Shown piece by piece: positions 13,958 to 58,487 of a stretch of 64,000 nt of DNA (position 1 is its first letter; the number at the start of each line of letters is the position of its first letter). Origin of the DNA: Candidatus Moraniibacteriota bacterium (lineage in GTDB: Bacteria > Patescibacteriota > Minisyncoccia > Moranbacterales > UBA2206). Both the position numbers and the translations under genes were made by a program. The notes beneath the pieces are model-generated. The model did no database searches. It was not told the origin of the DNA and saw only the letters and a list, made by a program, of their open reading frames with translations. The stretch spans positions 10,739 through 74,738 of the forward strand of contig JAUSNP010000004.1 in the NCBI GenBank assembly GCA_030645735.1. The letters run 5' to 3'.

Positions 13958-14394
13958 AATGCTCTTTTTTCGCAGTCCGTAAAGTCCCAAGTCCGTAAAG
14001 TTTTTAAAGTCACATACTTTATGGACTTTTGACTTTATAGCCTTTCGACTCTAGAACGCGTTTATAACTGGTGCAAAAAACAAAAATGAAAAGATCGCAA
14101 TCGCAATTACAGAGAAGATGATGAAGATAAACTTCAAGCTTTCTCCGTATTTTTTAGAATACGATTTCATATTATTATTGTCCATTGTAAATATACTAAT
14201 ACAACTATTTATTCAGTAGATCTTGTGCACTCAGTTGAATTTCGCCATAAGCAAACTTCAACCGAGATAGTTTAGAAACTATTAACCACTAACCCACGCA
14301 TAACGCGTAACGCATATCGTGAAACATATATGAAATACGTTCTACGATTTGCGCTCTACGATCTGCGATTTATTTAAATTTAAGAGTGTAATTT

Positions 14395-17570
<3,176 letters not shown>

Positions 17571-35667: not shown

Positions 35668-35897
35668 AGAAGTTTAATTGTTTTTTTATTTTACTTTTTT
35701 AATTATACAGCATTTCAAATATTTTGGCAAAGGCTTAAATAAAGCAAAAACAGTCCGCCAAGACGAACTGTTTTTGATATGCGGGAAGGACAGTTGATAG
35801 GTGGGAACATGTTTCCAAGGCTGGTGACTGGCATTTTGGAGAATTGGGATAGGATTGAGGTGAAAGTGGAAAGGATGGAGACTTTGATGAAGGGTTG

Positions 35898-36113
35898 CTA
35901 GTTACTAGCCTTGTCTTGCGTTTGTTTCATCTTTGCTAGAGCGCCATTTATAAACACCATTCCGAGCCTACTAAGCTTATCCATATGTAATTCAGCCTCA
36001 TCCTCGGTGATTTTCTTGCCGGAGCGTTCGAATATGAGATTCTGACACTTCTTGATTAGCTCATTTGAATATGTGCGACTTGGTTGTTCTTCTCTTTTTA
36101 AGTTTGTCATATT
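35898..36113 (-). CDS. Small protein of the paralogous ELIKKCQ..IFERSGKKIT.DEAE family, copy 1
   Basis: The start is chosen at the internal Met (MTNLKREEQPSRTYSNELIKKCQNLIFERSGKKITEDEAELHMDKL...) by alignment with copy 2. It is followed by an intrinsic-terminator-like hairpin at about 35740-35770. Confidence 0.5.
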   Translation of the reverse strand, partial: NMTNLKREEQPSRTYSNELIKKCQNLIFERSGKKITEDEAELHMDKLSRLGMVFINGALAKMKQTQDKASN

Positions 36114-36192
36114 CTTTGTGATGATAGTGAAAACAAATTGACCACACTCTTTATTATGCAACAATTGAATAAAAAAATTTTACTTTTTTTAT

Positions 36193-36642
36193 CTAAATTA
36201 TATTTAGATAGACAAAAAATAAAACACTTATAAGATTCACGAATAACAACGCCGTCATAACAAAAGTTTGAATTTCGATAAATTTCGATTGCCATGCCTT
36301 TCCTCCAAATGGGCCAACTAGATGTTTTCCAGTTTCTCTTGCGTGTTTAGTATAAACTTCGGCTGATTCTCGAGTAATTAAAAAATAAAAGAGATTTTCC
36401 AATAAAGCCGCCAAAACAATTAAAACAGCGGTGAGAATTATGATAAAAAAGAAAACTTTCTTGTAATTTGTATCAAGAGACACTGATGTTGAAAGAAAGA
36501 AAAGCCCCGATGTAACAGGCGTGTATATTGTCAAAAGAAGTTTTGAAAATATCCTTCTTTCTTTATCTGTTTCATTAATCAGTTTGTTAAACACCCGCAT
36601 GATTGTTAGTTCATCATTTGGATCTAATTTATCGGTATCCAT
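36193..36642 (-). CDS. Integral membrane protein, hypothetical, downstream partner of copy 2 of the small protein family
   Basis: A 149-aa ORF with three hydrophobic helices. It lies 21 nt from the preceding gene. Confidence 0.45.
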   Translation of the reverse strand: MDTDKLDPNDELTIMRVFNKLINETDKERRIFSKLLLTIYTPVTSGLFFLSTSVSLDTNYKKVFFFIIILTAVLIVLAALLENLFYFLITRESAEVYTKHARETGKHLVGPFGGKAWQSKFIEIQTFVMTALLFVNLISVLFFVYLNII

Positions 36643-36663
36643 TTCGGTTAATAACTAAATTTA

Positions 36664-36855
36664 TTATTTCTTTTTTACTTGTTCCTCTTGATCCAAAACT
36701 TTCACCGCCAGCATGAAATAGCGCGCAAATTTTTCGAGATATAATTCGGCCTTGTCCTTAGTGATTTTTTTGCCGGAGCGTTCAAATATGATCCGCTGGC
36801 ACTTTTTAATCAATTCACTCGAGAATGTGCGTTTTGGCTGATTTTCTTTTATCAT
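36664..36855 (-). CDS. Small protein of the ELIKKCQ..IFERSGKKIT family, copy 2
   Basis: MIKENQPKRTFSSELIKKCQRIIFERSGKKITKDKAELYLEKFARYF.... Identity to copy 1 is clear. Confidence 0.55.
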   Translation of the reverse strand: MIKENQPKRTFSSELIKKCQRIIFERSGKKITKDKAELYLEKFARYFMLAVKVLDQEEQVKKK

Positions 36856-36921
36856 ATTATTTGCCTTGTTGCAAAAACAAATCGCTGTTGTGCTTATTAT
36901 GCGATAGAGCGATTAAAAAAA

Positions 36922-37221
36922 TTACTTTTTTCCAGATTCCAAATTTTGTTCGGCTGGCGAAAGACCACCGGCGGCTTTATGCGGAAAATAATTCCAAGCG
37001 TCTGTGACAAGCTCCAAAACATTGCCCAATTCTGAGGCATCGCCACCACGGTCAAACATCGCCACGACATGCATAAAATCATCCTGCTCTTCTTCGTTGA
37101 AAATCGCATCTTTGATATCTCGCAATTCAAAATCACTTTCAGTTTCTTCAAGCATTTCCAAAATCTCGCTTTCAATTTCTTTGCGCCTTTCTAAAATTTC
37201 TTCTTTTGTTTCAGTTTCCAT
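36922..37221 (-). CDS. Acidic small cytoplasmic protein, hypothetical, 5 nt downstream of the serine protease gene
   Basis: A 99-aa ORF rich in E/D (MFDRGGDASELGNVLELVTDAWNYF). It overlaps an alternative-frame ORF that is judged spurious. Confidence 0.45.
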   Translation of the reverse strand: METETKEEILERRKEIESEILEMLEETESDFELRDIKDAIFNEEEQDDFMHVVAMFDRGGDASELGNVLELVTDAWNYFPHKAAGGLSPAEQNLESGKK

Positions 37222-37226
37222 ATTTT

Positions 37227-38102
37227 TTATTTTTCAGATCCAACATCTTGAACTTTTGCCTCCTCGGTTTTTTGAGGTAGAGGAATTTTGTCAATAATTT
37301 CAAATATTAATTCGATAGGCACAACTCTTACTAATCCAGTTTGTTCTGTAAATATTATTCTAGGCTCACCAGTCTGCTGACTAATAGCAACATCAGAATA
37401 ATTTTCTCCTGAACTAACAACGCCTATTAATCCTGCGGAAGGATTACTTTGGGTGCCAGCAATTGCTAGCAATTCCGGTTTATGGATAACTGGGCCTCCA
37501 CTATTTCCGGGATAAGCCGAAGCATCGATATAGAAAAAACCTTCCCCCAATACTTCTTCATCAACTCTAGCTATTATTCCTTGTCTAACAATAACAAAAT
37601 TTCTTGCTTTACCACTTATACGCATTGGAAATCCAAGTACAAACAATCCATCGCCGGTTGAAATATTTTTTGTTGCAAAATCTTTAGCATAAAATAACTC
37701 TTCCCCAACAAAAAAATCGTAATTTATTTTTGCCTCGTCTATTGCAGTAGCGTTAATTGGAAGCACCGCCAAATCAACTCTTTCATCTTCGTGCATTAAC
37801 CAGAGAGGACAACCATCACTCTTTAATAAATTCACTTTGAAATAATGACTTTTATTATCCAAAGTGTTAAATCTAAAAAATACCTCCTTGAGAAATTCCT
37901 TTGTTTTTTTATTCTGATATACATGCCTATTTGTCACAATAAACAACCTGAAGAGGGCGCCTCCTTCATTACTTTTGCCTGTTGGTTTTCCCACCAAAAA
38001 ACCCGTTGCAATTGAGTTTTTTTGCAACAATCCATTATTATCTTTACTCTCAACTTCAATTGATACAACTGAGTTTAAATAATGTGGTGGTATTAATGAC
38101 AT
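37227..38102 (-). CDS. Trypsin-like (S1/chymotrypsin fold) serine protease with no signal peptide, sitting within the R-M operon
   Basis: His (..TNRHVY..), Asp (..RVDLAVLPI..) and Ser (..GNSGGPV..) triad motifs appear in canonical order. The gene is co-directional with res and lies 6 nt downstream of it. Confidence 0.7.
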   Translation of the reverse strand: MSLIPPHYLNSVVSIEVESKDNNGLLQKNSIATGFLVGKPTGKSNEGGALFRLFIVTNRHVYQNKKTKEFLKEVFFRFNTLDNKSHYFKVNLLKSDGCPLWLMHEDERVDLAVLPINATAIDEAKINYDFFVGEELFYAKDFATKNISTGDGLFVLGFPMRISGKARNFVIVRQGIIARVDEEVLGEGFFYIDASAYPGNSGGPVIHKPELLAIAGTQSNPSAGLIGVVSSGENYSDVAISQQTGEPRIIFTEQTGLVRVVPIELIFEIIDKIPLPQKTEEAKVQDVGSEK

Positions 38103-38108
38103 AAGATT

Positions 38109-40784
38109 TTATTTTTTAAATGCACCTACTAACTGCATAAAGCTTGTCGGCTTATATTTATCCCATTCCTCCTGCTTAACATAAAGCATTTTATATTCAA
38201 TTTTCTTTTGTCTTTCACTGGCATCCTCGCACCATTGTGCCAATCTTTTTATTTTTTCAATATCATCCAAATCTTCCCGTCCTTTTGTTTCGATAATATA
38301 GATTGTTTTGTTATCTGTCTTCACAAAAAAGTCTGGGTAATAACTGGAAATTGCACCGCTCGCATTTTTGTAATCAATCTTGAAATGAATTTCAAAGTAA
38401 TTTTTTGCGAAAGAAAGCACATCTTCAGCACCTTCCAAGAAGTCCGCAAATTCAAGCTCGAAATCACTGTCGCCGACAATTTTATTAAATACGCTCTTTT
38501 TGGGCAATAAATATTTTTTATCAGTTACCACAAATGGTCGCGCGCTACTAATTTTGAGATAATTTTTTATTTCCGTATCACCAACATCCTGCACAGTCAA
38601 ATTGTTTATCTCTTTTTTAAAGGTTTCGACAATAGTTTTTACCGCCTCTAATTCGGATAAGTTTCGCAAAATATTTGCGTCATTAAGATTCACTTCTTCA
38701 TTAAATAGATGCGCGTTGATAAATTCTTTCACTTTGCCAAAAAGAATGTCATAGCAACCAAAGAGACGGAGTTCTTTCATTATTCTTTGCACAAAAAATC
38801 CAATCACACTTTGGTAATTTGGCTCAATGGAGCTATTCAAAATTGTTGTGTGATGTTCTTTGTCATCAATAACTTCCTTAAAAACAATCTCTTTCTTTTC
38901 TTCCTCGGAAAACTGCTTAACTGAAATTTTTTCATGTTTGAAAGTAGCAATATTCAATAGATTGAGATTTTTGTATTCCCTCTGGATTCTCGGTGTCAGA
39001 ACCGGCAGTTCAATGTCCAAATTTTCAATATCTTTTTTTACATTTTCATGATCGACTTCAATGACTGTGGGAGTGATTGGAGAACCGCTTCGATCCATTC
39101 TTCTTTTTTCCAATTCAACACCTTCTGCCTTGATTGATTCAACAAACTCCATAAAAGCAGGTGTTCCAATGATACTCACATACTCTTCCACATCTTGTCC
39201 AAAAAACATTCGGCGAAGACCACGACCGAGTGTCTGCTCTGGCAAAATTTTTGAATCAGAACCATAAGGACGGAGTCCAACGATTGTTGTCACATTTTTT
39301 ACATCCCAACCCTCTTTGAGCATCAAGACAGAAACAATGACTTTATATGGGCTTTCCATGCTATCAATATCATTGGCCTTTTTCCTGAGTTCTTGCAATT
39401 CTTTTTCTTTTTTGCCAGTTGTCGTTTCAGATATCTCACCACTTCTATTTGTGTGAATTGTCAGAACCGCACCTTTCAATTGTGGATAGCTATTTTCCAA
39501 AAATTCCGCCACATCATCACAATTCGTTGTATCATCAGTCATTATAAAAAGAATCGATTTTTTTCCTGTTGGCAATAATTCTGTATATATCTTTTCCCAT
39601 TCTTCCACGCCCAGTCGAATAAAGTCTTCGTATTTTTCAGAAAATATTGAACTTTGTTTTTCTTGCAGTTTTGCCCGACTGGCAGAATCCGGCAAGACCG
39701 GATTTTTCACTACGCCTTGATGGATAGCTTCAACCAGCGGATAGTCAGAAACAGTCTGCACAAAAATCTCGCCACGATTATTTTTTGGTGTCGCAGTCAC
39801 ATCGATTTGCAAAGCTAGTTTTTTACCCTTTTGTAATAATCGATTATGAATATCTTCGATTGATTTAAACCATGCCATTTTTGGATCATGAATGTGATGA
39901 GCTTCGTCATTAATAACCATCAACTCATCAACGTCGCGCACGATTTCTCCTAAATCAATTTTTGAATCATTAGTCTTTCCAGTAACCTTACTGCCCATAA
40001 AATAATCTGACGTGTCCTCATCTTCAAAACTAGCTTCAGATATATCGCCTTCATAAACTCTATGTATATTAGTCAGAAAAATATTTCCCGATTTTGAAAT
40101 TGTGCCAACCTCATCTTGCAAATGCAGTTTTATTTGAAAATCATCTTGCCAATTTTGTCCGGCAAATCCATTATCAGGCAAAATCGGATCATCATGAAAT
40201 ATTTTCAATCCTTCAAAATCAGCCTTGATTCGATCCAAAACGATGATATTTGGCGTGATGAGTAAGAAATTTTTAGATAGTTCAGAATCTTCTTCATAAA
40301 GCTTGTGAAAATATGACCAAGCTAATAGCAAACTCATAACTTTTGTTTTTCCACTTCCAGTCGCCATCTTTATCACAAAACGAAGCCAATCCTCATTGAA
40401 CATATTCGGACTAACACGACCCAATTTATCAAACTTTATCAAATCATATTTGTTGGAAACTTTTTCAACATCATAGAGCCAGATAATTGTTTCCACTGCC
40501 TCTCTTTGAGCATAATAATATTGAAAGGAAACGCTTGTTCCGTCTTTGGCAAAAATGGTGTGTGGCTCAAGAAACCACCAATTCAAAAGAGCCTTGGAAG
40601 TTTCGCTTGCTCCGTCATAATTATTCTTTCGCCACTCCGCAACTTGCTCACGCAATTCTGGAACAAAAGGAGGCAAAAGCTTTTCAAAACCCTCTCTTCG
40701 CAAATCTTCTTCGGCCGGAAACCACCTGATTGCCGGATCAAGGATTTGAAATTTATCTTTTGGAAAATCTTTGTGTAATGCCAT
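38109..40784 (-). CDS. res: Type III restriction enzyme Res subunit (SF2 helicase plus a C-terminal PD-(D/E)xK-like nuclease)
   Basis: Walker A is ..MATGSGKTKVM... DEAH box is ..VINDEAHHI... A helicase C-terminal region follows. The C-terminal ..YYPDFFV...YIIETKGRE.. motif is nuclease-like. Confidence 0.85.
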   Translation of the reverse strand: MALHKDFPKDKFQILDPAIRWFPAEEDLRREGFEKLLPPFVPELREQVAEWRKNNYDGASETSKALLNWWFLEPHTIFAKDGTSVSFQYYYAQREAVETIIWLYDVEKVSNKYDLIKFDKLGRVSPNMFNEDWLRFVIKMATGSGKTKVMSLLLAWSYFHKLYEEDSELSKNFLLITPNIIVLDRIKADFEGLKIFHDDPILPDNGFAGQNWQDDFQIKLHLQDEVGTISKSGNIFLTNIHRVYEGDISEASFEDEDTSDYFMGSKVTGKTNDSKIDLGEIVRDVDELMVINDEAHHIHDPKMAWFKSIEDIHNRLLQKGKKLALQIDVTATPKNNRGEIFVQTVSDYPLVEAIHQGVVKNPVLPDSASRAKLQEKQSSIFSEKYEDFIRLGVEEWEKIYTELLPTGKKSILFIMTDDTTNCDDVAEFLENSYPQLKGAVLTIHTNRSGEISETTTGKKEKELQELRKKANDIDSMESPYKVIVSVLMLKEGWDVKNVTTIVGLRPYGSDSKILPEQTLGRGLRRMFFGQDVEEYVSIIGTPAFMEFVESIKAEGVELEKRRMDRSGSPITPTVIEVDHENVKKDIENLDIELPVLTPRIQREYKNLNLLNIATFKHEKISVKQFSEEEKKEIVFKEVIDDKEHHTTILNSSIEPNYQSVIGFFVQRIMKELRLFGCYDILFGKVKEFINAHLFNEEVNLNDANILRNLSELEAVKTIVETFKKEINNLTVQDVGDTEIKNYLKISSARPFVVTDKKYLLPKKSVFNKIVGDSDFELEFADFLEGAEDVLSFAKNYFEIHFKIDYKNASGAISSYYPDFFVKTDNKTIYIIETKGREDLDDIEKIKRLAQWCEDASERQKKIEYKMLYVKQEEWDKYKPTSFMQLVGAFKK

Positions 40785-40788
40785 ATAA

Positions 40789-41145
40789 CTATTTCTTTTT
40801 TATTAGCTCCTGAATTTGTTTTTGCTGTTCCAATATTAACTGTTGATTTTTTTGATTTTGATCAAGAAGTTCCTGGTTAATCTTCTGTGATTGTTCAACA
40901 GATCCGGTTTTTTCTGAATATTCCTTATAGATGGCTGAATTTATATGAAAAGAATCAATAATCAATGTTGACACCATCACTAATAAAATTATAACAACAC
41001 TAAGTAAGATATAGTTTATATCTTTAAATTTAGAATCGGCTTCTTTTTTAACATCTTCCACCGTAACAGAGCCACCAGTTTCTGGTATTTTAATTTGGAT
41101 TTCACCAAGTTCAGATTTTTCAAATTGCACTTGTTCCTTTTCCAT
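40789..41145 (-). CDS. Small single-pass membrane protein with a Q-rich coiled-coil C-terminus, inserted between mod and res
   Basis: A 118-aa ORF with a central TM helix (ILLSVVIILLVMVSTLII) and ...QELLDQNQKNQQLILEQQKQIQELIKKK. Confidence 0.4.
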   Translation of the reverse strand: MEKEQVQFEKSELGEIQIKIPETGGSVTVEDVKKEADSKFKDINYILLSVVIILLVMVSTLIIDSFHINSAIYKEYSEKTGSVEQSQKINQELLDQNQKNQQLILEQQKQIQELIKKK

Positions 41146-41148
41146 AAA

Positions 41149-41367
41149 TTAAAAAATACCCTTAATTACAAGAACGCCAGACTCCTCCTCAACAGCAAAA
41201 TCTCTTCCAACAAATTGAGCAAGATCTATCCCACTAAAAGACACTCCTCTACCAAATCTAACACCTGGGCCCATTTGCACGCCACCAATTCTAACCAAGC
41301 GAAGAGGCTCAATGCTTCCATCTGTATCTACTTTAAATATTTGATAAAAATTAATTCTTTGAATCAT
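41149..41367 (-). CDS. Small Gly-rich hypothetical protein between mod and res
   Basis: A 72-aa ORF with a 4-nt overlap or spacing to its neighbours. No motif was recognised. Confidence 0.3.
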   Translation of the reverse strand: MIQRINFYQIFKVDTDGSIEPLRLVRIGGVQMGPGVRFGRGVSFSGIDLAQFVGRDFAVEEESGVLVIKGIF

Positions 41368-41371
41368 TAAT

Positions 41372-43534
41372 TTATATATTTATCTCAATTACTTTGGTCG
41401 TATCGTTTCCAAAAATATCAATCACCTTGATTGCGATTTTCATTTTGCCTTTGGACACTTCCTTGAAAACTGAAATCAATTCAAGAGATCTGTCTTTTTT
41501 GGTTCTGAATGATTGCCACTCATTTTCAAAAATATAATTTCCAGTCCATTTTTCTTCAAAGTCGCCTATCTCCATTTGTACAGCATCAGACGATCCATCA
41601 AGTTTTTGCTGAACAGTTTTTTCTTTCGGCACTCTGATAATTTCTTTTTTGCTTTCAAAATCAAAATCCACCGACCAATAATCAATCCAGTCAGTCCATT
41701 TTTTTGTCAAAGTTTCACGCTCAATAATATCCGTATTTTTATCCTTGGAAATCTTTATGACTTGACCGTTTTCAATGACAATCTTGTTTCCACCGGATTT
41801 CAATTTTTCCTCCACTTCTCCAGTATTGTCTTGATTATAGAAAACGGAGAAATCAGTTATCTCAATAGCAACTTCTTTGGCGTTGCCTCGTCCGCGGATA
41901 ATTGGTTTAACTTCAATATAGGCAATGTCATAAAATTTCACCTGTCCTTTTTCAACCGCTTTTTTATCAAACACTTCACGCGGAATAACCTTAAATTGCA
42001 CATCAATACCCAGTTTTTTTGCTTGCTCAAAGTCCAGTCCCATTTCATAGTCAAATCCCAAAACATCAGCTTTAGTTATTTTATTCTCCCGACATTCAGT
42101 GATTATTTTTTCCAGAAAATCATTTGTAATTGGCGTATCAATTGATCCGACTGCAATCAGCCTATCTCTTTTCTTACCGACAAATGAATTGAATGAATCA
42201 ATTGGCTCAGCCTTGTAGGCAGAAAGAATGAGTTTGATAAATTCTTTTTCTTTATTCACCCTTTGAATTCTTTTTTCTTCGTCACGCAAATTTTCATTCA
42301 CAGTCAAAAACTTCTCTCTTTCATATTTTCCAATATTTAAAATTTCAAATGCTCGAAAATTTTTACCAACTTTCTTCAATTCTCTTTGCACCCCAATCAT
42401 TCTCTTGCGAGTGGTATGGACAGAAAAACGACCTAAATCAGAACCAATCCATTTTCGATTTAGCTTTTCTGCAACCGCCAAAGTTGTGCCTGAGCCACAG
42501 AAAAAATCAGCAACAAGATCACCTTCATTGGAAGAGGCGCTTATTATTCTTCTGAGCAGTGACTCTGGTTTCTGGGTTGGATAAGCAATGTGTTCAGGAA
42601 GTGCATTAAAAACCTGTCCGATATTATTTTCTTTTCTATCTAGCCAAGTCCAAACATCATCCGCTTTTCTCCCTTCATCTGCATAATATCTTGTAGCATT
42701 ATTATTTCCAGACATTCTATACTTTCTACCATCCTCATCAACAAGAGGATAAATACTTTCATTCTTTACAAGCAAACGCACTTGATTAAATTTTACTGAT
42801 TTTTTATTTTTAGCAAAAGAAATTATATAATCATGCTTTTTAGCAAAGCCTTTTATTGGCGCTGTACCAGCCTGATAATGCCAAATTATTTGATTCAAAA
42901 AATTTTCCTTTCCAAAAATTTCATCTAGAATTAAGCGCATATAACTATTCAATCTCCAATCACAATGCACATAAACACTACCATCATCCGCCAAAAGACC
43001 GTGCATCAACTTTAGCCTTTCATAAATCATCGCTATAAAACTATCGGCGCCTTTGCCCCAGGTGTCGCGGTAGGCAATTTCTTCAATCACCGACGGTTTT
43101 TTGGTGAAAGTATCTTCGCCAATTTCAATATTCATCGAAAAATCCGCGCCCACATCAAATGGAGGATCGATATAAATCAATTTCAATCCACCCTCAGCTT
43201 CAATTTGTTTTCGAAGTGGTCCATTCTTGAGCGATGACAAAATCAATTTATTGTCACCCCAAATTAGCTTGTTTGACCAGCCTTTCATTTGCCGGCCAGA
43301 AGTGTCAAAAAGAGAAGTTTGCGCGGTTATTTTTTCCTCACTCCGTGGTTCATCAATATGCTCAATCGTCTGAAATGGCAAAACTATATTTTCCGTTTCA
43401 TCAGTTTTTCCATTCCATAAAAGCTCAACCTCCCGATCGGTGTCAAAAAGCAAAAAGCGGTATTTCTCCGGCAATGACTTGCCAGATTCCAAATACTTTA
43501 TTACATCTCGTTTTTCATTCTCAGTTAGCTTCAT
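41372..43534 (-). CDS. mod: Type III R-M Mod subunit (N6-adenine/N4-cytosine beta-class DNA methyltransferase)
   Basis: Motif IV (..LIYIDPPFDVGADF..) precedes motif I (..DFFCGSGTTLAVA..). The protein is 720 aa and lies upstream of res in the same orientation. Confidence 0.85.
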   Translation of the reverse strand: MKLTENEKRDVIKYLESGKSLPEKYRFLLFDTDREVELLWNGKTDETENIVLPFQTIEHIDEPRSEEKITAQTSLFDTSGRQMKGWSNKLIWGDNKLILSSLKNGPLRKQIEAEGGLKLIYIDPPFDVGADFSMNIEIGEDTFTKKPSVIEEIAYRDTWGKGADSFIAMIYERLKLMHGLLADDGSVYVHCDWRLNSYMRLILDEIFGKENFLNQIIWHYQAGTAPIKGFAKKHDYIISFAKNKKSVKFNQVRLLVKNESIYPLVDEDGRKYRMSGNNNATRYYADEGRKADDVWTWLDRKENNIGQVFNALPEHIAYPTQKPESLLRRIISASSNEGDLVADFFCGSGTTLAVAEKLNRKWIGSDLGRFSVHTTRKRMIGVQRELKKVGKNFRAFEILNIGKYEREKFLTVNENLRDEEKRIQRVNKEKEFIKLILSAYKAEPIDSFNSFVGKKRDRLIAVGSIDTPITNDFLEKIITECRENKITKADVLGFDYEMGLDFEQAKKLGIDVQFKVIPREVFDKKAVEKGQVKFYDIAYIEVKPIIRGRGNAKEVAIEITDFSVFYNQDNTGEVEEKLKSGGNKIVIENGQVIKISKDKNTDIIERETLTKKWTDWIDYWSVDFDFESKKEIIRVPKEKTVQQKLDGSSDAVQMEIGDFEEKWTGNYIFENEWQSFRTKKDRSLELISVFKEVSKGKMKIAIKVIDIFGNDTTKVIEINI

Positions 43535-43571
43535 ATCTTATTGAAACACAAAGGGTTTTTTAGCTATTCTT

Positions 43572-44561
43572 ATGGTATCATTAAGTAAGGGTTTATTCAA
43601 GACAGATGAAATGAGCAGGATTTCAAATACAAATAGCACAGGAGGATTGGAAATAGATCGCCTAATGGGCGACGATTTTCTTTTTCTCCTCCTTATTCTG
43701 ATTGACTACCCAGAAAAAAATCCCGGCATCCTTGATCCAGCTCCGTTTGGAAAATTTAGATTCAAAAATTTGCAGTGGAAGTATTGTATTGAATTTATAC
43801 TGTTTCTCAAAAATTGTGCTGGCATAAAAGTCACACGAACAAACCAAGACCTTCCCGAAGTTGAAGTTTTTGAGGAATCGATTGAAATTATTCAAAATGG
43901 CATAAATAATTATTTGGAAAAATTCATCTCTGGCGAACTTATCCCCATTGATAAAAATTATTTAAATTTTGAAAAACAGAAAAAATATTTTCTAGAGAAA
44001 ATAAAAACTAAGCTTGAAAATGAAACATCTAAAACGCTTTTTCTTTCTGACAATGAAATTGAAAATGAATATGATTTTTTTGAAAGCATGTTGGCTTTGG
44101 AAAGGCAAAAATATTTAAAAATAAAAAGTGTCACCAATTCCCAAAAGCCAGAAAGCTCTGATTTTTATAAAATAGTTTTTACAATACGATCAAAATTTCA
44201 CAAAAAAGTTAGCGTGCAAAACAAAAAAGTTAGAAGGCTTTCCGTTAAATGCTTTTCAAAAGGAAACTTGGGCTATTTTCGCGTGAAAAAAGAATCCAAA
44301 GAAAAAATCATCGGAAAGGCTAATTCCAGGCCGTTTTTATTATTACAATTTTTAGTCAATCAAGGCATTGGCGAAATAGTATCGTTCCAAAAAGCTTTCA
44401 AGGCCATCAAAGACGGCAAACATTATAAAACAACCTCCCACCTTGTGGATGAAGAATTGGCCGCTCTTATAAATGCTAGGAAAGTTCTGCAGAAAGAGAG
44501 AAAAATACACCCCTTCAAACTAATTATCGGCAAAAAAGACCGCACAATCCGAATGCAATAA
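43572..44561 (+). CDS. Hypothetical protein, about 300 aa, lysine-rich, in the mobile-element-like module. The start is uncertain.
   Basis: A long plus-strand ORF. No catalytic motif was recognised. The C-terminal region is helix-rich. Confidence 0.45.
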   Translation: MVSLSKGLFKTDEMSRISNTNSTGGLEIDRLMGDDFLFLLLILIDYPEKNPGILDPAPFGKFRFKNLQWKYCIEFILFLKNCAGIKVTRTNQDLPEVEVFEESIEIIQNGINNYLEKFISGELIPIDKNYLNFEKQKKYFLEKIKTKLENETSKTLFLSDNEIENEYDFFESMLALERQKYLKIKSVTNSQKPESSDFYKIVFTIRSKFHKKVSVQNKKVRRLSVKCFSKGNLGYFRVKKESKEKIIGKANSRPFLLLQFLVNQGIGEIVSFQKAFKAIKDGKHYKTTSHLVDEELAALINARKVLQKERKIHPFKLIIGKKDRTIRMQ

Positions 44562-44698
44562 ATTAAAATCATTTTATTGATTTTGGAAAAAACAGAGAAT
44601 TCACTCTGTTTTTTCGTTTGAATAAACGAAAAAGTTCAACAGCCAATTCTCTCGTGGCTTGTTTTCTTGACGGCGTGGGGAGCGTTTTATGTAATGCA

Positions 44699-44896
44699 GT
44701 CATGCAAGAACAATTTTCACCACACCTCATAGAAAAATGCCAAAAGCTCGTTTTCAAGCGAGCTGGGGTTCACATCACCGAAGATCAAGCAGGGAGGTGC
44801 TTGGAAAAATTGGCGCGTTTGGCTAAACTGGCTTTCGAGACTCTTGTGGAAAATAAACATAATGCAAAACCCGATGGAAAGAATAATCACAATTGA
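44699..44896 (+). CDS. Small protein of the ELIKKCQ family, copy 3 (..PHLIEKCQKLVFKRAGVHITEDQAGRCLEKLARL..)
   Basis: The start is placed at the internal Met by alignment with copies 1 and 2. Confidence 0.5.
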   Translation, partial: VMQEQFSPHLIEKCQKLVFKRAGVHITEDQAGRCLEKLARLAKLAFETLVENKHNAKPDGKNNHN

Positions 44897-45173
44897 TAAA
44901 AATGCCCGCTTAAAAATCATTTGCGGAAGCATAATGTTGCAATATAGGAAAAAATCCAAAACAAAGCAAATAGCGTGGCACACAGACGGCCATTTCTCAG
45001 ATTATGCATCAATGGCAGAACATTACATTTCCAACGCGCCATACCGCGCTATTGAAGGCACAGCGTCAATAGAAAAGCTGATTGAAGTCGTCCAGCAGTC
45101 GAGCGACCAAATCAGCCGAGTTTTGAAAAATAATCAATTAAATGGAAAATCACATGGAAAATCAAACCGATGA
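44862..45173 (+). CDS. Hypothetical small protein
   Basis: An ORF of about 100 aa that overlaps the end of the preceding gene, with a start at an internal Met. Confidence 0.35.
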   Translation: MQNPMERIITIDKNARLKIICGSIMLQYRKKSKTKQIAWHTDGHFSDYASMAEHYISNAPYRAIEGTASIEKLIEVVQQSSDQISRVLKNNQLNGKSHGKSNR

Positions 45174-45375
45174 GACTACGAATGAAGAATTCAATCAAAT
45201 ACCAGCTGGTGAGAAACTCTGCCCGCTCATGAATGGATTCTACAAGGGCATTCCTTGCACTTCAGATTGTGCCCTGTATCGTGAGGGTAAGAATGAAAAT
45301 GCATGTGCTTTGCATGAACTGAGATCGATCAGTTGGTTCATGAAGCAGAGCCAGGACAAAAAGCCCATTGATTAA
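45142..45375 (+). CDS. Small Cys-motif protein (LCPL...C..DC family), copy a
   Basis: A 77-aa ORF containing ...EKLCPLMNGFYKGIPCTSDCALY...C.... Confidence 0.45.
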   Translation: MENHMENQTDETTNEEFNQIPAGEKLCPLMNGFYKGIPCTSDCALYREGKNENACALHELRSISWFMKQSQDKKPID

Positions 45376-45416
45376 ATCAATGGGCTTAAAAAAATAATTA
45401 TTAACTACACAATCAA

Positions 45417-45662
45417 ATGGCTATGGTCAAGATTGAGGGCTTCCTCAAAAAGCTGGAAAAATTGCCGTTGAGCGAGCTATGCCCGCTCATCGACAATGTG
45501 AAGTGGAACTGCGGAAAATTAGACAAAGGCAATGAGCCATGCTGTCATAATACCTATAAATATATGAACTGTCCGCATTTCAAAAAATGGTTCTATTGGA
45601 ATGTGACCCGGATGGTTGCCAAAGAAATCGCCAAACTGGAAATTAGTCAAAAGAAAAAGTAA
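45417..45662 (+). CDS. Small Cys-motif protein (LCPL...C..CC..C family), copy b, a paralog of 45142-45375
   Basis: An 81-aa ORF containing ...SELCPLIDNVKWNCGKLDKGNEPCCHNTYKYMNCPHF.... Confidence 0.45.
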   Translation: MAMVKIEGFLKKLEKLPLSELCPLIDNVKWNCGKLDKGNEPCCHNTYKYMNCPHFKKWFYWNVTRMVAKEIAKLEISQKKK

Positions 45663-45702
45663 CCAAAAAGAAATGTAAATAATACTTACTTACTAAAGGT
45701 AC

Positions 45703-45744
45703 AGTAACTAGTAAGTAAGTATGGTTTTAAAAACTTTTTCTTTG
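45703..45744. promoter_or_regulatory. 14-bp perfect inverted repeat hairpin (atacttacttacta / tagtaagtaagtat) directly after the Cys-protein gene. It may be a terminator or a recombination/operator site.
   Basis: Read from the sequence. It is followed by GGTTTT. Confidence 0.5.
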
Positions 45745-46856
45745 AGAAATCTCTCTAACTGAAAAACTGAAACGACCTAAAAATCCCTCTGTCGCGCGAA
45801 AAATGCTACGCTATGCACATTTAAAAGGCTCGGATAAGCCAAAGTTATGGGAATTAAAAATGACGGTGATCCGCCGCGCGCTGGCAACGAACCACTGACT
45901 TGAAAAAATGCACAAATCTTGGCAGAGGCGCAGCGGAAAGGGCGCCAGAGGACAAAAAAATTGGAGCAATCTTTGAGAAGACGCATTTTTGCCGGAACAA
46001 TGACGGCCATCCGGAATTGGACGGAAAAATGCAAGCGACGAGAAGTTGAAACGATTTTGTTTGGCCTCGGGTTCGCACTCCCCTCGCCTTGGGGCGAGGG
46101 GTTGGGGGTGTGGGGAAATCCAAAGTGCGGAAAAGGATTGATGTCCTACAACGGGCATTCTTGCGACACCCCTTTTTTCTCAAAAATCGGGGAAAGCTTG
46201 GACACGATTTTTGCAAGAAAAAAGAGCGTGTTCGCAAAATGCCTCGTTGTGGGAGGGTGAGAAAAAGACAGTCCTTTAGTTTTCAAAGTGAAGTTTTTTT
46301 CGAATCCCCTTGCGTCAATCCTTTTCCTTCCTTGCGGGGAAAGAGATTGAGAAGACCGCCAAGGTTTTCTCACTACTAAAGCAGTTTGACCGCAACCTTT
46401 ATAAATTGTGCAGGATGAAACAGTGGCATTGGAAAAGTCTGATTAGATATTTGGCAGTCTGGAATTTTCGCCGCGAAAAGTTCCAGTCTGCCAAATTCCT
46501 TGAATGAAAACATTTTCCAAGGACACTGTTTCTTTCTGCTTTCCTTTTTGATTGGTTGCGGGAAAACTACCCTTATTTTAGGGGGTTATCCATAGAATAA
46601 AAATATGTTATTATACATATGGACACAAATTAATATTCATCAGAACACAATCGGTGCGATTTTTTTTCGTATCGAGAAAAGGGCGACTTTCGCTTCAAGT
46701 TCTGATGAAGAATTTGTGTCCAGCGAGGTCGTCCTTTTGTTTGGGCGAAAAACAAAAAAATTATGGACACAAACTTATTACTCAGCGATTCACCGGCAGA
46801 CTTGCCAACCATATTGATGTTTTTTGGAACATTTATTTTTATAATTTTTATGGAAT

Positions 46857-48443
46857 ATGGAAACGATAAAAACAAAAACAAATAAACCAAAATTTGTCAT
46901 CTATGCCCGTAAGTCATCAGAAGACAATAGCAAACAAGTGCATTCGATTGATGCGCAGATTTTTGTCATGAAAGACATTGCCAAACATGAAGGCATTCAG
47001 ATTGTGGAAATCTTTCAAGAATCAAAATCCGCCAAAGAACCTGGGCGGCCGGTTTTCAACAAGATGATCGAGCAATTCAAGAAAAACAAATATGATGGCA
47101 TTCTCTGCTGGAAAATTGACCGCTTGGCGAGAAATCCGGTGGACGCCGGAATTGTGCAATGGCTTTTGCAGAAAAATTCCATCCAGCAGATTATCACCAG
47201 CGACCGAAAATATAATCCGGAAGATAATGTCATTATTGCCAGCGTAGAATTCGGAATGTCGAATCAGTATATTTTGGATTTGTCTAAAAATGTGAAACGC
47301 GGTTTGGCGGAGAAAGTTCGGCGCGGAGAATATCCCGGGCCGGTGCCACTCGGATATTTGCGAGATTTCAAAACTAAAAAGATTATCCTAGATCCTGACA
47401 AAGCGCACTATATCAAACGAGCCTACCAACTTTATTCAACTGGCCTTTATTCTATCGACCAGCTCACGGAAAAACTGAACAATGAAGGCTTGCGCTCTTT
47501 GCACAGCCAAAGAGTCCAGCCATCAATTATTGGGCGCATGCTGAATAATCCAATTTATTATGGCTGGTTTGAATGGAAGGGCCAACTTTGCCCGGGCAAG
47601 CACGCGCCAATCATCTCCAAGGACATTTTTGACAAGGTGGACGAGATAATGTTTCCGCAGAGGGTTATGAAACGGAAAGATAAGCGAAAGTTCACTTTTC
47701 GCGGCCTTTTGCGTTGCGGTGAGTGTGGGTTGAAGATAACCGCGGAGGTGCGGAAAGGCCACACCTATTATCGTTGCACGAAATCCAGAGGCACCAACAA
47801 ATGCTCCCAAAGATATGTGCGTGAAGAGGCTCTGGACGAAGAAATCAACCGCAAGCTATCTGAGCTCAACTTTGATCCGGAAGTGACTGAGCTGGCCATT
47901 TTGGCGCTCAAAGACCAAAACAGAAACCAACTGCAACAGCAAATTGAAATCCAAAGAAAGAACGAGGAACTGCTCCGCAAGAACCGAGAATCGCAAGACA
48001 TCCTCGTCAATCGCTTTTTGGACAATCTCGTGCCAGAGGATATTTATAATCGCCGGCTGACAGGCTTGCGCAACGATGAAGCACGGTTGGATGAAATAAT
48101 CCAAAACACCAAAGACAACACACGCAACGCTTTTGATAAGATTGAAACGATTGTGCGCTTTTCCCAATTAGCCAATGAAATATTTACAAATGGAACTCCG
48201 GTAGCGAAGAAAGAAGTGGCTGGCATAATATCTTCGGACATCACTTTGAAAGATAGAAAAATCCTTGATTTTAGCCTTGATGTTGAATTTCAATGGATGA
48301 TAGATGATATGAATGACTCGTTTGCCCTAAACCACAAAATTGCAATCTTGGAACCAGTCACTTTAGCTTTAGAAAAAGCAAAAGCAGGCATTGAGTTGCC
48401 TGCTAAAAGCGTTGTGCGGGGCTGGCCGGACTCGAACCGGTGA
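46857..48443 (+). CDS. Large serine recombinase (phage-integrase type). It has a resolvase catalytic domain, a recombinase domain and a zinc-ribbon domain.
   Basis: The N-terminus is ..FVIYARKSSEDNSKQVHSIDAQ.. with the catalytic Ser motif, followed by ..ILCWKIDRLARN... The zinc ribbon is ..CGECGLKIT...YYRCTK..C.. and a long coiled coil follows. The last roughly 25 nt of the ORF overlap the 3' end of tRNA-Asp. Confidence 0.9.
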   Translation: METIKTKTNKPKFVIYARKSSEDNSKQVHSIDAQIFVMKDIAKHEGIQIVEIFQESKSAKEPGRPVFNKMIEQFKKNKYDGILCWKIDRLARNPVDAGIVQWLLQKNSIQQIITSDRKYNPEDNVIIASVEFGMSNQYILDLSKNVKRGLAEKVRRGEYPGPVPLGYLRDFKTKKIILDPDKAHYIKRAYQLYSTGLYSIDQLTEKLNNEGLRSLHSQRVQPSIIGRMLNNPIYYGWFEWKGQLCPGKHAPIISKDIFDKVDEIMFPQRVMKRKDKRKFTFRGLLRCGECGLKITAEVRKGHTYYRCTKSRGTNKCSQRYVREEALDEEINRKLSELNFDPEVTELAILALKDQNRNQLQQQIEIQRKNEELLRKNRESQDILVNRFLDNLVPEDIYNRRLTGLRNDEARLDEIIQNTKDNTRNAFDKIETIVRFSQLANEIFTNGTPVAKKEVAGIISSDITLKDRKILDFSLDVEFQWMIDDMNDSFALNHKIAILEPVTLALEKAKAGIELPAKSVVRGWPDSNR

Positions 48444-48490
48444 CCTACTGCGTGACAGGCAGTCGCTCTAACCAACTGAGCTACAGCCCC
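48417..48490 (-). tRNA. tRNA-Asp (anticodon GTC)
   Basis: The reverse complement is GGGGCTGTAGCTCAGTTGGTTAGAGCGACTGCCTGTCACGCAGTAGGTCACCGGTTCGAGTCCGGCCAGCCCC plus a discriminator. The cloverleaf and the anticodon loop CTGTCAC were checked by eye. Confidence 0.8.
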
Positions 48491-48513
48491 ATTTGTCTAT
48501 TCTATTTTTAACT

Positions 48514-48576
48514 TTGCGTAACCTACTGCGTGGCAGTCCCGAGTACTCGGGATCTGACCAACTGAGCTACAGCCCC
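48514..48576 (-). pseudogene. Truncated pseudo-tRNA-Asp fragment. It comprises the 5' acceptor and D arm, an 18-nt palindrome, and an anticodon-stem remnant, and has no T arm.
   Basis: The reverse complement is GGGGCTGTAGCTCAGTTGGTCAGA-tcccgagtactcggga-CTGCCACGCAGTAGGTTACGCAA. It duplicates the 5' half of the adjacent tRNA-Asp. Confidence 0.5.
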
Positions 48577-48604
48577 ATAATTTGTCTATTTTATTTTCAA
48601 CCCG

Positions 48605-48678
48605 TAGCAGGGGTGAGATTCGAACTCACGACCTCAGCGTTATGAGTGCTGTGCTCTAACCAACTGAGCTACCCGGCC
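48605..48678 (-). tRNA. tRNA-Met, or tRNA-Ile2 with lysidine (anticodon CAT), probably the elongator
   Basis: The reverse complement is GGCCGGGTAGCTCAGTTGGTTAGAGCACAGCACTCATAACGCTGAGGTCGTGAGTTCGAATCTCACCCCTGCTA. There is one acceptor-stem mismatch. Confidence 0.7.
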
Positions 48679-48700
48679 ATGCTTTTTATTCCAATTTATG

Positions 48701-48772
48701 TTGCGGGGGCAGGATTCGAACCTGCAACCTCATGGTTATGAGCCATACGAGCTGCCATTGCTCTACCCCGCT
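48701..48772 (-). tRNA. Initiator-like tRNA-Met (anticodon CAT), with a 1-72 mismatch and strong resemblance to tRNA-fMet
   Basis: The reverse complement is AGCGGGGTAGAGCAATGGCAGCTCGTATGGCTCATAACCATGAGGTTGCAGGTTCGAATCCTGCCCCCGCAA. Compare with E. coli fMet: CGCGGGG...CTCATAA...CCCCCGCAACCA. Confidence 0.7.
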
Positions 48773-51368: not shown

Positions 51369-53546
<2,178 letters not shown>

Positions 53547-57970: not shown

Positions 57971-58354
57971 CTAGGGTTTACTACAGCCTACTTGAGTACA
58001 AGTGATTACGACAGTTGAAGCGTCTGTGGCAGTATAACTGAATGTTCCAGCAGCAGGATCTGATGTTGCAGCTCCTCCCCATGCTCCGCCGTTTCCAGCA
58101 ATAGCCGGCCATACAGAAGTTGAACCTGCGCACATAGCAACGCCCGCAGTTGGACCTGCAAGAGCCAAGCCATCATCCATACACATAACTCCACCAGCTA
58201 CAGTGCTACTAACTGAAGCATAGATAGCTGCGTCCTTAGCCTTTATTCTTGCAGAATTCAAACTAACCAAAACGATTGACGCTAAAATACCAATGATGGC
58301 AATTACGATCAAAAGTTCAATCAAGGTGAAACCTCGCATTATTTTATTTTTCAT
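57971..58354 (-). CDS. Type IV pilin, a candidate major pilin
   Basis: MKNKIMRG|[24 protein letters not shown]... It is 127 aa, Gly/Ala/Thr-rich, and has a C-terminal Cys pair. Confidence 0.8.
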
Positions 58355-58376
58355 ATATTCACCCGCCTTTCTAGCT

Positions 58377-58396
58377 AATCCCGAGTACTCGGGATT
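58377..58396. promoter_or_regulatory. 20-nt perfect palindrome aatcccgagtactcgggatt in the pilin 5' leader/promoter region. It is a candidate operator or leader hairpin.
   Basis: Read directly from the sequence. The 16-nt core recurs inside the pseudo-tRNA-Asp at 48537-48552. Confidence 0.6.
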
Positions 58397-58487
58397 CTAT
58401 TAATTCTTATCTCTATCTTAAAATCATGTTTTCAAAAAATATTCCGTGAAATCAAGTGTGCTCAGGTACTAATCAGTGGTTCGGAAA

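Follow-up and report, generated by a model that had tools for sequence, protein, structure and literature searches.

The 64,000-nucleotide stretch of DNA analysed here, referred to as the window, comes from a Candidatus Moraniibacteriota bacterium and contains an operon of three tRNA genes and a type IV pilin gene (Table 1). A perfect 16-nt palindrome, TCCCGAGTACTCGGGA, is present in a truncated copy of tRNA-Asp inside the operon and again, extended to the 20-mer AATCCCGAGTACTCGGGATT, upstream of the pilin gene. A preliminary description of the window had reported a pseudo-tRNA-Asp with the palindrome at 48514-48576 and an identical, longer palindrome before the pilin start; alignment to tRNA-Asp agreed with the first in coordinates and sequence, and the second was located at 58377-58396. 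The genes for the initiator tRNA-Met, the elongator tRNA-Met and tRNA-Asp are one operon, and since the intrinsic terminator lies 3' of tRNA-Asp the pseudo-tRNA is inside the operon transcript. The window was compared with 80 metagenomic loci retrieved with the LigA protein (53-78% identity), which are called relatives; individual loci are given by L numbers. The tRNA-Asp of the closest relative, L123, is identical to that of the window at 75/75 positions.

Table 1. Position of the features discussed in the text, in window coordinates.
Feature	Position	Strand	Basis or remark
tRNA-Met, initiator type	48772..48700	minus	ARAGORN, Rfam; first gene of operon
tRNA-Met, elongator	48678..48604	minus	ARAGORN, Rfam; second gene of operon
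tRNA-Asp (GTC), intact	48490..48416	minus	ARAGORN, Rfam; parent of the pseudo-copy
tRNA operon promoter	48848-48820	minus	TTGACA-17-TATAAT, 12/12 consensus match
Intrinsic terminator 3' of tRNA-Asp	48404-48383	minus	
Spacer copy A, 5' of pseudo-tRNA, duplicate of spacer copy B	48577..48603	minus	Repeat search
Pseudo-tRNA-Asp: 5' acceptor strand, D arm, palindrome, anticodon-stem and variable-loop remnant	48518..48576	minus	Alignment with tRNA-Asp
Palindrome copy 1, 16-mer	48537..48552		In place of GCGA (3' D stem and position 26)
GCAAA junction and spacer copy B	48491..48517	minus	Immediately 5' of true tRNA-Asp
Palindrome copy 2, perfect 20-mer	58377..58396		16-mer core 58379-58394
Type IV pilin gene	57971..58354	minus	N_methyl motif; first pilin after pilC
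Degenerate inverted-repeat element, like a transposable element of the miniature inverted-repeat type (MITE), filling the pilC-pilin spacer	58375..58481	minus	Alignment with L134 element
Large serine recombinase (Resolvase, Recombinase, Zn_ribbon_recom)	46857-48443		Stop codon inside tRNA-Asp antisense
N6_N4 DNA methylase	41372-43534		In 13-kb island
ResIII helicase with TnsA-like nuclease domain	38109-40784		In 13-kb island

Anatomy of the pseudo-tRNA-Asp and the pilC-pilin spacer

Read in the tRNA sense, the 113-nt spacer between the elongator tRNA-Met and tRNA-Asp consists of spacer copy A, GGGGCTGTAGCTCAGTTGGTCAGA, TCCCGAGTACTCGGGA, CTGCC-ACGCAGTAGGTTAC, GCAAA and spacer copy B. The pseudo-tRNA begins with GGGGCTGTAGCTCAGTTGGT (48576..48557), which matches the 5' end of tRNA-Asp at 20/20 positions, and continues with CAGA, the palindrome and CTGCC-ACGCAGTAGGTTAC. 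Pairwise alignment with the true tRNA-Asp gave three differences: the palindrome stands where GCGA was, after the D loop; the TGTC of the anticodon loop is deleted; and similarity ends at 48518, immediately before the T stem. The copy is without anticodon, T arm or 3' acceptor strand. The upstream spacer of about 22 nt is duplicated as well (48580-48601 against 48491-48512, 91% identity, with a repeat period of 86-89 nt), which points to tandem duplication of the spacer together with the 5' two-thirds of the tRNA, and the fragment reads as a partial tandem duplicate of the spacer and the first ~50 nt of tRNA-Asp. The breakpoints, read from the sequence, fall within two stretches that resemble each other, the T-stem sequence ACCGGTTCGA of tRNA-Asp and ACGGGTTGAA, which spans the end of tRNA-Met and the start of the spacer, and this microhomology suggests that the duplication arose by illegitimate recombination.

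ARAGORN called just the three true tRNAs, the Rfam tRNA model gave no match within 48514-48576 at E<=10, and the pseudo-tRNA was still not called by tRNA detectors when the palindrome was removed in silico. A functional tRNA gene was rejected on the absence of a detector call and of the T arm and 3' acceptor strand, and a split tRNA was rejected on the same detector results. An intron-containing tRNA of the group I type seen in Patescibacteria was also rejected, as the insert is 16 nt, follows the D loop and is accompanied by loss of the 3' third of the tRNA. Searches with Rfam found no intron families in the window at gathering scores or in the pseudo-tRNA region at E<=10, and no known RNA family spanning the hairpin.

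The 16-mer occurs twice in the 64 kb against an expectation of 0.01; the number was still two when up to 2 mismatches were allowed, and none of 100 shuffles gave two or more. Both copies, with identical flanks, are also present in an independent Logan assembly of run SRR13727526 (contigs L001 and L003), so they are not an assembly artefact. No further TCCCG..CGGGA hairpins were found in the window. The perfect 16-20-mer folds into a hairpin of -10.2 kcal/mol as RNA (z = -4.1) and -6.9 as DNA, with z about -4, and that of copy 1 is lengthened, as DNA or RNA, by the flanking CAG/CTG. The effect on RNA would be expected to be limited to an extra stable stem-loop of about -10 kcal/mol in the tRNA operon spacer, and the same predicted stem-loop would appear in the pilin leader if that stretch is transcribed.

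At the second site the 20-mer lies 22 nt, and its 16-mer core 24 nt, upstream of the pilin ATG at 58354, beyond a conserved leader of the form CTAGAAAG-N3-GGTGAA. The spacer between pilC and the pilin gene (about 58481..58375) aligns from one end to the other with a 147-nt element at L134:17866-18012, which stands directly after the gyrB stop codon and in which both terminal inverted repeats are composed of AACCACTGA, TCCCGAGTACTCGGGA and CTGATT, giving inverted ends of about 45 nt. As in MITEs, terminal inverted repeats surround a short non-coding core, with one arm degenerate in the window copy: the left arm, AACCACTGATTAGTACCTGAGCACACTTGATTTCAC (58481..58446), holds a decayed palindrome in which AACCACTGATTAGTACCTGAG is a decayed copy of AACCACTGATCCCGAGTACTCGGGA, and the right arm is the intact 20-mer. 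Basal relatives share the leader CTAGAAAG-N3-GGTGAA..ATG and have a pilC-pilin spacer of just 50-56 nt, while other relatives have open reading frames (ORFs) of four-helix-bundle or GxxExxY type, or other hairpin clusters, at the same site. This variety of inserts shows the site to be an insertion hot spot and the palindrome to be no conserved part of a pilin promoter. The spacer as a whole was rejected as a single structured RNA (z = -0.2).

Hairpin modules in relatives and in other genomes

The Met-Met-Asp gene order is kept downstream of ligA-gatCA in about 25 relatives. The spacer before tRNA-Asp measures 5-23 nt in six (L128, L160, L132, L140, L130, L129), and in L123 it holds an AT-rich repeat insert and no pseudo-tRNA; the remaining relatives have inserts of small GIY-YIG ORFs, LAGLIDADG ORFs, pseudo-tRNA fragments or a ~90-nt element with a duplicated tRNA 3' end. 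Extra tRNA fragments were found in 11 of the 33 tRNA-bearing loci of relatives, and mini-hairpins rich in G+C break these fragments in the D, anticodon or T loops. In L126 a pseudo-tRNA-fMet carries exactly TCCCGAGTACTCGGGA where its D loop should be, and at the same position L130 and L197 have TCCCGCCAAGGCGGGA and TCCCGCTATGGCGGGA. The pseudo-tRNA-fMet of L142 (14836-14935) is the true gene with a clean 20-nt insert of CCTGCCTGCCGGCAGGCAGG between positions 35 and 36, and that of L197 (14590-14700) has the same 20-nt hairpin exactly between these positions. A one-mismatch variant of the 16-mer, TCCCGAGCACTCGGGA, is in frame in the ligA gene of L134 (10327-10342, encoding NPEHSGQ), at a site that is empty or holds other inserts in other relatives. 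TCCCG..CGGGA is the commonest base of G+C-rich perfect hairpins in the relatives, with 22 occurrences against at most 11 for any other 5-mer; their loci contain 40 hairpins per 0.95 Mb.

The same design was found in a Sphingobacteriales locus (L082), where two tandem units of spacer and pseudo-tRNA-Asp precede the true tRNA-Asp and in each unit TCCCGAATGCTCGGGA takes over the position of the 3' anticodon stem and variable loop. Behind a small GIY-YIG ORF in this locus comes one more fragment of tRNA-Asp, which bears TCCCGAGTACTCGGGA unchanged, and the pseudo-tRNA hairpins are of the TCCCGA..TCGGGA form. Redundant, hairpin-bearing tRNA copies therefore recur independently.

A genome collection with one genome per species (596 Gb) was scanned for the exact 16-mer, and the figures that follow refer to the matches listed. 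The 16-mer was present at no fewer than 119 loci of other genomes; by record title, 73 of these are Bacteroidota, 22 Patescibacteria, 9 a single Aminicenantia metagenome-assembled genome (MAG) and 15 other or unlabelled. Several genomes have 3-9 copies among the matches listed, including one Patescibacteria MAG with 5 and one Rikenellaceae MAG with 4, and copies are also present in the cultured isolates Marivirga, Maribellus, Natronoflexus and Aestuariivivens. A nucleotide comparison of the window with the 119 listed genome loci showed no similarity.

Most listed copies (97/122) lie outside open frames of >=150 aa, and 25/122 lie within one. Further exact complementarity of >=3 bp flanks 17 of the 122, compared with 1.9 expected, and a flank-to-flank duplex of <= -12 kcal/mol is predicted for 18% of copies, compared with 5% when the flanks were shuffled (Mann-Whitney p = 2.6e-5). 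The copies are often at the tip of longer, locus-specific hairpins, and the typical context is a terminator, for example aaaaagcacca, the palindrome and tggtgcttttttt; the flanking bases have a loose bias (Y-K-R-A). Sister palindromes with the same stem base and other inner bases (TCCCGAGCGCTCGGGA, TCCCGATAACTATCGGGA, TCCCGAGGCCTCGGGA) are near many copies, and the exact 16-mer is, on this comparison of sequences, one variant of a TCCCG..CGGGA hairpin family, which makes its identity across phyla less surprising.

Two of the listed loci, L093 and L120, are titled 'uncultured Gammaproteobacteria' (SRP178699) and have Patescibacteria-like repeat flanks (attcgta repeats); L120 also gave the best match (50% identity) to the FtsW/RodA-family protein of the window among the 119 genome and 15 viral loci. 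The taxon labels of both may be wrong.

Several other arrangements were observed in the relatives. A structured ~90-nt element after tRNA-Met genes in L124, L135 and L177 (GGGAAAGGGGTCGGGAAAAC..GTTTTCCCG..GGAAGTATTGAAACCGCAAGGTTTCAA..) closes with a second copy of the final ~17 nt of the preceding tRNA, like a miniature integrated element. In L197 (14931-15298) a tRNA-Met gene is split in its D loop, where 13-bp inverted repeats surround an entire second tRNA-Met, and related arrangements are present in L199 and L166. When joined, the halves of the L197 gene are called by ARAGORN as tRNA-Met(CAT), and they co-fold to a cloverleaf (-66 kcal/mol). The predicted structure could represent a tRNA that is nested or split, or else a gene that was inactivated only recently. 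The outer tRNA is broken in the anticodon loop in L199, and in the D, anticodon and T loops in L166. Small, putatively selfish ORFs are present in the pilC-pilin spacers of L124, L126, L128, L131, L134, L138, L153 and L197 and in the tRNA spacers of L126, L130, L131, L142, L158, L183, L190 and L199. Taken together they are of four-helix-bundle (23S intervening sequence), GxxExxY, GIY-YIG or LAGLIDADG type, each flanked by simple AT-rich or hairpin repeats; no ORF of the GIY-YIG, LAGLIDADG, four-helix-bundle or GxxExxY type was found in the window.

Literature searches with the sequence CCCGAGTACTCGGG, with flank motifs such as GTCATTCCGAG and similar gave no relevant paper, and keyword searches returned nothing on palindromic repeats or pseudo-tRNAs in Patescibacteria. 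No description of this hairpin family or of hairpin-substituted pseudo-tRNAs was found in the searchable literature.

Origin of the two copies

The palindrome is best explained as a non-autonomous hairpin module, resembling MITEs and repetitive extragenic palindromes (REPs), that landed separately in a non-functional duplicate of the tRNA and in the pilC-pilin spacer, an interpretation to which a probability of about 0.72 is assigned. The module would be a small hairpin repeat with TCCCG...CGGGA at the base of its stem, dispersed in Patescibacteria, Bacteroidota and some other phyla and probably mobilised in trans, either by an enzyme or through templated patch repair. Tandem duplication, probably by illegitimate recombination at the microhomology described above, would have left a truncated and dead extra copy of the spacer and the first ~50 nt of tRNA-Asp inside the Met-Met-Asp operon; this dispensable copy would then have tolerated a hairpin module replacing 4 nt after the D loop, together with the 4-nt deletion. 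Between pilC and the pilin gene, an inverted-repeat element with the palindrome in each arm would have been inserted, and its left arm would since have decayed while the right arm stayed an intact 20-mer. Modules of this kind appear to land preferentially where the DNA already folds into a hairpin, in its loop or at its tip, with terminators and tRNA cloverleaf loops as examples, and this preference would explain the hairpin-riddled redundant tRNA copies in both the Moranbacteria lineage and the Sphingobacteriales genome. The module would accumulate where it is tolerated and where DNA forms hairpins, and a dead tRNA duplicate offers both. The module itself probably has no regulatory role at either site.

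That a mobile or insertion motif had landed in both places was one of two possibilities raised in the preliminary description, and it is favoured by the occurrence of the 16-mer in unrelated contexts of many genomes and phyla, by its presence or absence at orthologous sites and by the alignment of MITE-like terminal repeats with the pilC-pilin spacer. The copies do not behave as a generic, restriction-site-like word scattered at random positions: they are unevenly spread over phyla, lie mostly in non-coding DNA and are nested in hairpins. A special connection of tRNA-Asp with pilin, as implied by that description, was not supported, the two copies being independent insertions of one repeat family.

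Several observations weigh against a mobile module. By chance a 16-mer would turn up about 140 times in 596 Gb, the same order as the raw number of exact matches, and the case therefore rests on context and taxonomy and not on the count. The stem foot of the 16-mer has no GTAG or CGTC tag of the kind that defines two large REP superfamilies. Viral contigs gave 15 matches, about the chance level and mostly in coding sequence, on which grounds a phage origin was rejected. No clear target-site duplication was found at the ends of the L134 or window element, no insertion sequence (IS) with matching ends was seen among the loci at hand, and no cognate transposase (RAYT, IS200-like or other) was identified, with no Pfam match to Y1_Tnp in the 30 of 49 larger window ORFs that were scanned. 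The TCCCG-type modules in pseudo-tRNAs replace 4-15 nt instead of forming clean insertions; short matches such as GA...CTG flank the donor and target of modules, and with such replacement templated patch repair fits as well as transposition. Finally, a weak promoter-like match (9/12; TTAAGA-16-TAGAAT) adjoins the pilin copy and may have a local effect on pilin expression.

A wider interpretation, put forward tentatively, is that a family of loop-invading mini-hairpins present across phyla (TCCCG..CGGGA, CCTGCCTGCCGGCAGGCAGG, TCCGCC..GGCGGA and GCCAAAGGC..GCCTTTGGC) targets structured-RNA genes. It is conceivable, with odds well below even, that these hairpins are tolerated in redundant copies alone, leaving hairpin-substituted pseudo-tRNAs beside an intact gene, often with free-standing GIY-YIG or LAGLIDADG endonuclease genes that bring replacement tRNAs. 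The shared design of the Moranbacteria loci (window, L126, L142, L197, L199) and L082 would on this speculative proposal be due to one shared mechanism, so far undescribed, that acts on single-stranded tRNA DNA in its folded form. It is also conceivable that the pseudo-tRNAs are functional, for example as endonuclease-immune alleles or decoys.

An improbable alternative to a mobile module is that the hairpin has been exapted as an RNA element, modelled as a 5' stem-loop stabilising or tuning the abundant pilin mRNA and as a structure for processing or protection within the spacer of the tRNA operon. The predicted stability of the hairpin (-10.2 kcal/mol, z = -4.1), its position 22 nt before the pilin ATG with the ribosome-binding site not sequestered, and the position of the pseudo-tRNA copy within the operon transcript would suit such a role, and in L124, L128 and L183 other G+C-rich hairpin clusters stand just 5' of the leader CTAGAAAG. 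Against this, many relatives (L133, L143, L164, L171, L181) have no hairpin at the pilin site, the sole promoter-like match would start transcription inside the palindrome, and copies elsewhere occur in all kinds of contexts.

Slightly less probable again is a homing-endonuclease relic, in which the 5' part of the resident tRNA-Asp was displaced by a free-standing GIY-YIG cassette bringing a replacement tRNA-Asp, the ORF subsequently disappeared and the hairpin belongs to the scar left behind. Small GIY-YIG ORFs do lie between a hairpin-bearing pseudo-tRNA-Asp and an intact tRNA-Asp in L126, L142, L199 and the Bacteroidota locus L082, LAGLIDADG ORFs are found in the same tRNA cluster of L130, L183 and L190, and T4 SegB is a documented GIY-YIG homing endonuclease within a tRNA cluster (PMC2330249). 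The window itself has no ORF of GIY-YIG, LAGLIDADG, four-helix-bundle or GxxExxY type, the 91% identity of its two spacers is as expected of local tandem duplication, and of the 119 listed loci that have the exact palindrome just 2 have a GIY-YIG ORF nearby. The duplication may have come from a GIY-YIG cassette that was lost, but such an origin is not needed to explain it.

The other possibility in the preliminary description, a protein-binding site used in two contexts, was not borne out. An operator bound by a dimeric regulator controlling both the pilin gene and the tRNA operon would account for the perfect 16-20 bp dyad and for the overlap of the pilin copy with a weak -10-like hexamer (TTAAGA-16-TAGAAT), and is nevertheless very unlikely: the palindrome is absent 5' of pilin in most relatives and from their tRNA operons, and the tRNA copy lies 270 nt downstream of the operon promoter in a dead gene copy. 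Elsewhere, identical copies in distant phyla are found at hairpin and terminator tips, in pseudo-tRNAs, in coding regions, at MITE ends and even inside ligA, and the sister hairpins keep the stem base while varying in inner sequence and length, which misfits an operator with two fixed half-sites. Coupling of tRNA and pilin expression through a shared site was a tempting idea that is now unsupported. Least probable of all is that the palindromes are recombination sites of the serine recombinase about 100 nt from copy 1, with inversion or excision of 9.8 kb switching pilin. The recombinase gene does converge on tRNA-Asp, and copy 2 separates the pilin gene from its upstream region. Against this, the segment bounded by the two copies carries ligA, gatCA, tRNAs and pilus genes, perfectly symmetric sites give no direction so that lethal deletions would compete with inversion, the recombinase is outside the segment and belongs to a separate 13-kb island, absent from L134, which accounts for its presence, and the same palindrome occurs in genomes and contexts without such a recombinase nearby.

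The mobile-module interpretation accounts for a gene fragment that annotators would miss, and points to an undescribed, untagged hairpin repeat family common to Patescibacteria and Bacteroidota that preferentially ends in hairpin loops, including those of spare tRNA copies and permissive protein loops such as that of LigA. If this loop-targeting rule is true genome-wide, it would provide a handle on how selfish DNA accumulates and is tolerated in very small genomes, and would flag a source of tRNA mis-annotation in MAGs.

The island that contains the recombinase is low in GC (0.35) and extends over ~35800-48415, between tRNA-Asp and a gene for a small membrane protein followed by gyrB; a trypsin-like peptidase is also encoded there. 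In L134 the membrane protein gene and gyrB directly follow tRNA-Asp with no island, and window positions 35775-35735 are homologous to the terminator that follows tRNA-Asp in L123. No second copy of the tRNA-Asp 3' part, as an attachment-site duplication of the recombinase island, was found at <=3 mismatches, and TGCCAGTCAC-CAG, which matched best locally at the island's far end, was not significant (26/500 shuffles). The 23S rRNA gene of the window (14382-17563) is 3182 nt long compared with a 2925-nt model, and therefore contains one or more insertions. Insertions in 23S rRNA are common in Patescibacteria.

The ligA gene of the window (51369-53543, minus strand) contains a 41-nt perfect palindrome at 52204-52244, composed of two inverted GTAG-tagged hairpins (GTAGGGGTTTCACCCCTAC / GTAGGGGTGAAACCCCTAC). 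This doublet is in frame in the zinc-finger loop of LigA, where relatives have 0-40 unrelated residues, and has the look of a REP doublet within a gene that is essential. Immediately ahead of the KxDG active-site motif, LigA has another insertion site that is hypervariable; the TCCCGAGCACTCGGGA insert of L134 at this site is flanked by CCAAAT-type simple repeats, and the window insert is unrelated and glycine-rich.

Comparison with known systems

Small palindromes in frame in protein and RNA genes are found as Rickettsia palindromic elements and as the G+C clusters or double-hairpin elements of fungal mitochondria, and such elements are often alongside homing-endonuclease ORFs. The ligA genes of Moranbacteria behave in a similar manner; the sequences and hosts differ and no homology is claimed. 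The Rickettsia palindromic elements are mentioned in PMC3733652.

Group I introns have been described at position 35/36 of tRNA-Asp and tRNA-Asn in Patescibacteria, where they are missed by standard tools (Nakagawa et al. 2026, PMC13011429); among the papers found, this is the work on tRNA genes of the phylum that comes nearest. The window shares with these an interrupted tRNA-Asp and the phylum, and the hairpins of L142 and L197 are exactly at 35/36. In contrast to an intron, the window insert is 16 nt long, is placed behind the D loop instead of in the anticodon loop, and gave no match to an intron model, and as the pseudo-tRNA copy has no 3' third it cannot be spliced into a tRNA.

Among bacterial MITEs (Correia/NEMIS, RUP, ERIC, Nezha; PMC3184786), the L134 element and the pilC-pilin spacer of the window resemble the known examples in having terminal inverted repeats, no ORF and a position beside genes. 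They differ in that the inverted repeats hold a self-complementary core that also occurs alone, and in that no target-site duplication or parent IS was identified among the loci at hand.

The closest parallels concern REP, REPIN and BIME sequences, repetitive extragenic palindromes moved by Y1 transposases of the RAYT type (Di Nocera et al. 2013, PMC3733652; Quentin et al. 2018, PMC6006769). Like these, the 16-20-mer is a short G+C-rich palindrome able to form a stem-loop, is dispersed and mostly extragenic, adds stem-loops to transcripts, occurs at times as inverted doublets (L134, L109), and is found at the centre of target palindromes and inside genes; REPs within target palindromes and within genes are documented for other families (PMC3733652). 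Unlike typical REPs the window palindrome is a shorter, perfect 16-20-mer without a GTAG or CGTC tag, no RAYT gene was found in the 30 of 49 larger window ORFs scanned, and the copy number is low, up to 9 per MAG among the matches listed, with identical copies across phyla. The association with pseudo-tRNA loops also sets it apart from REPs and is not described in the literature searched. On the favoured interpretation the palindrome is an ordinary kind of selfish repeat.

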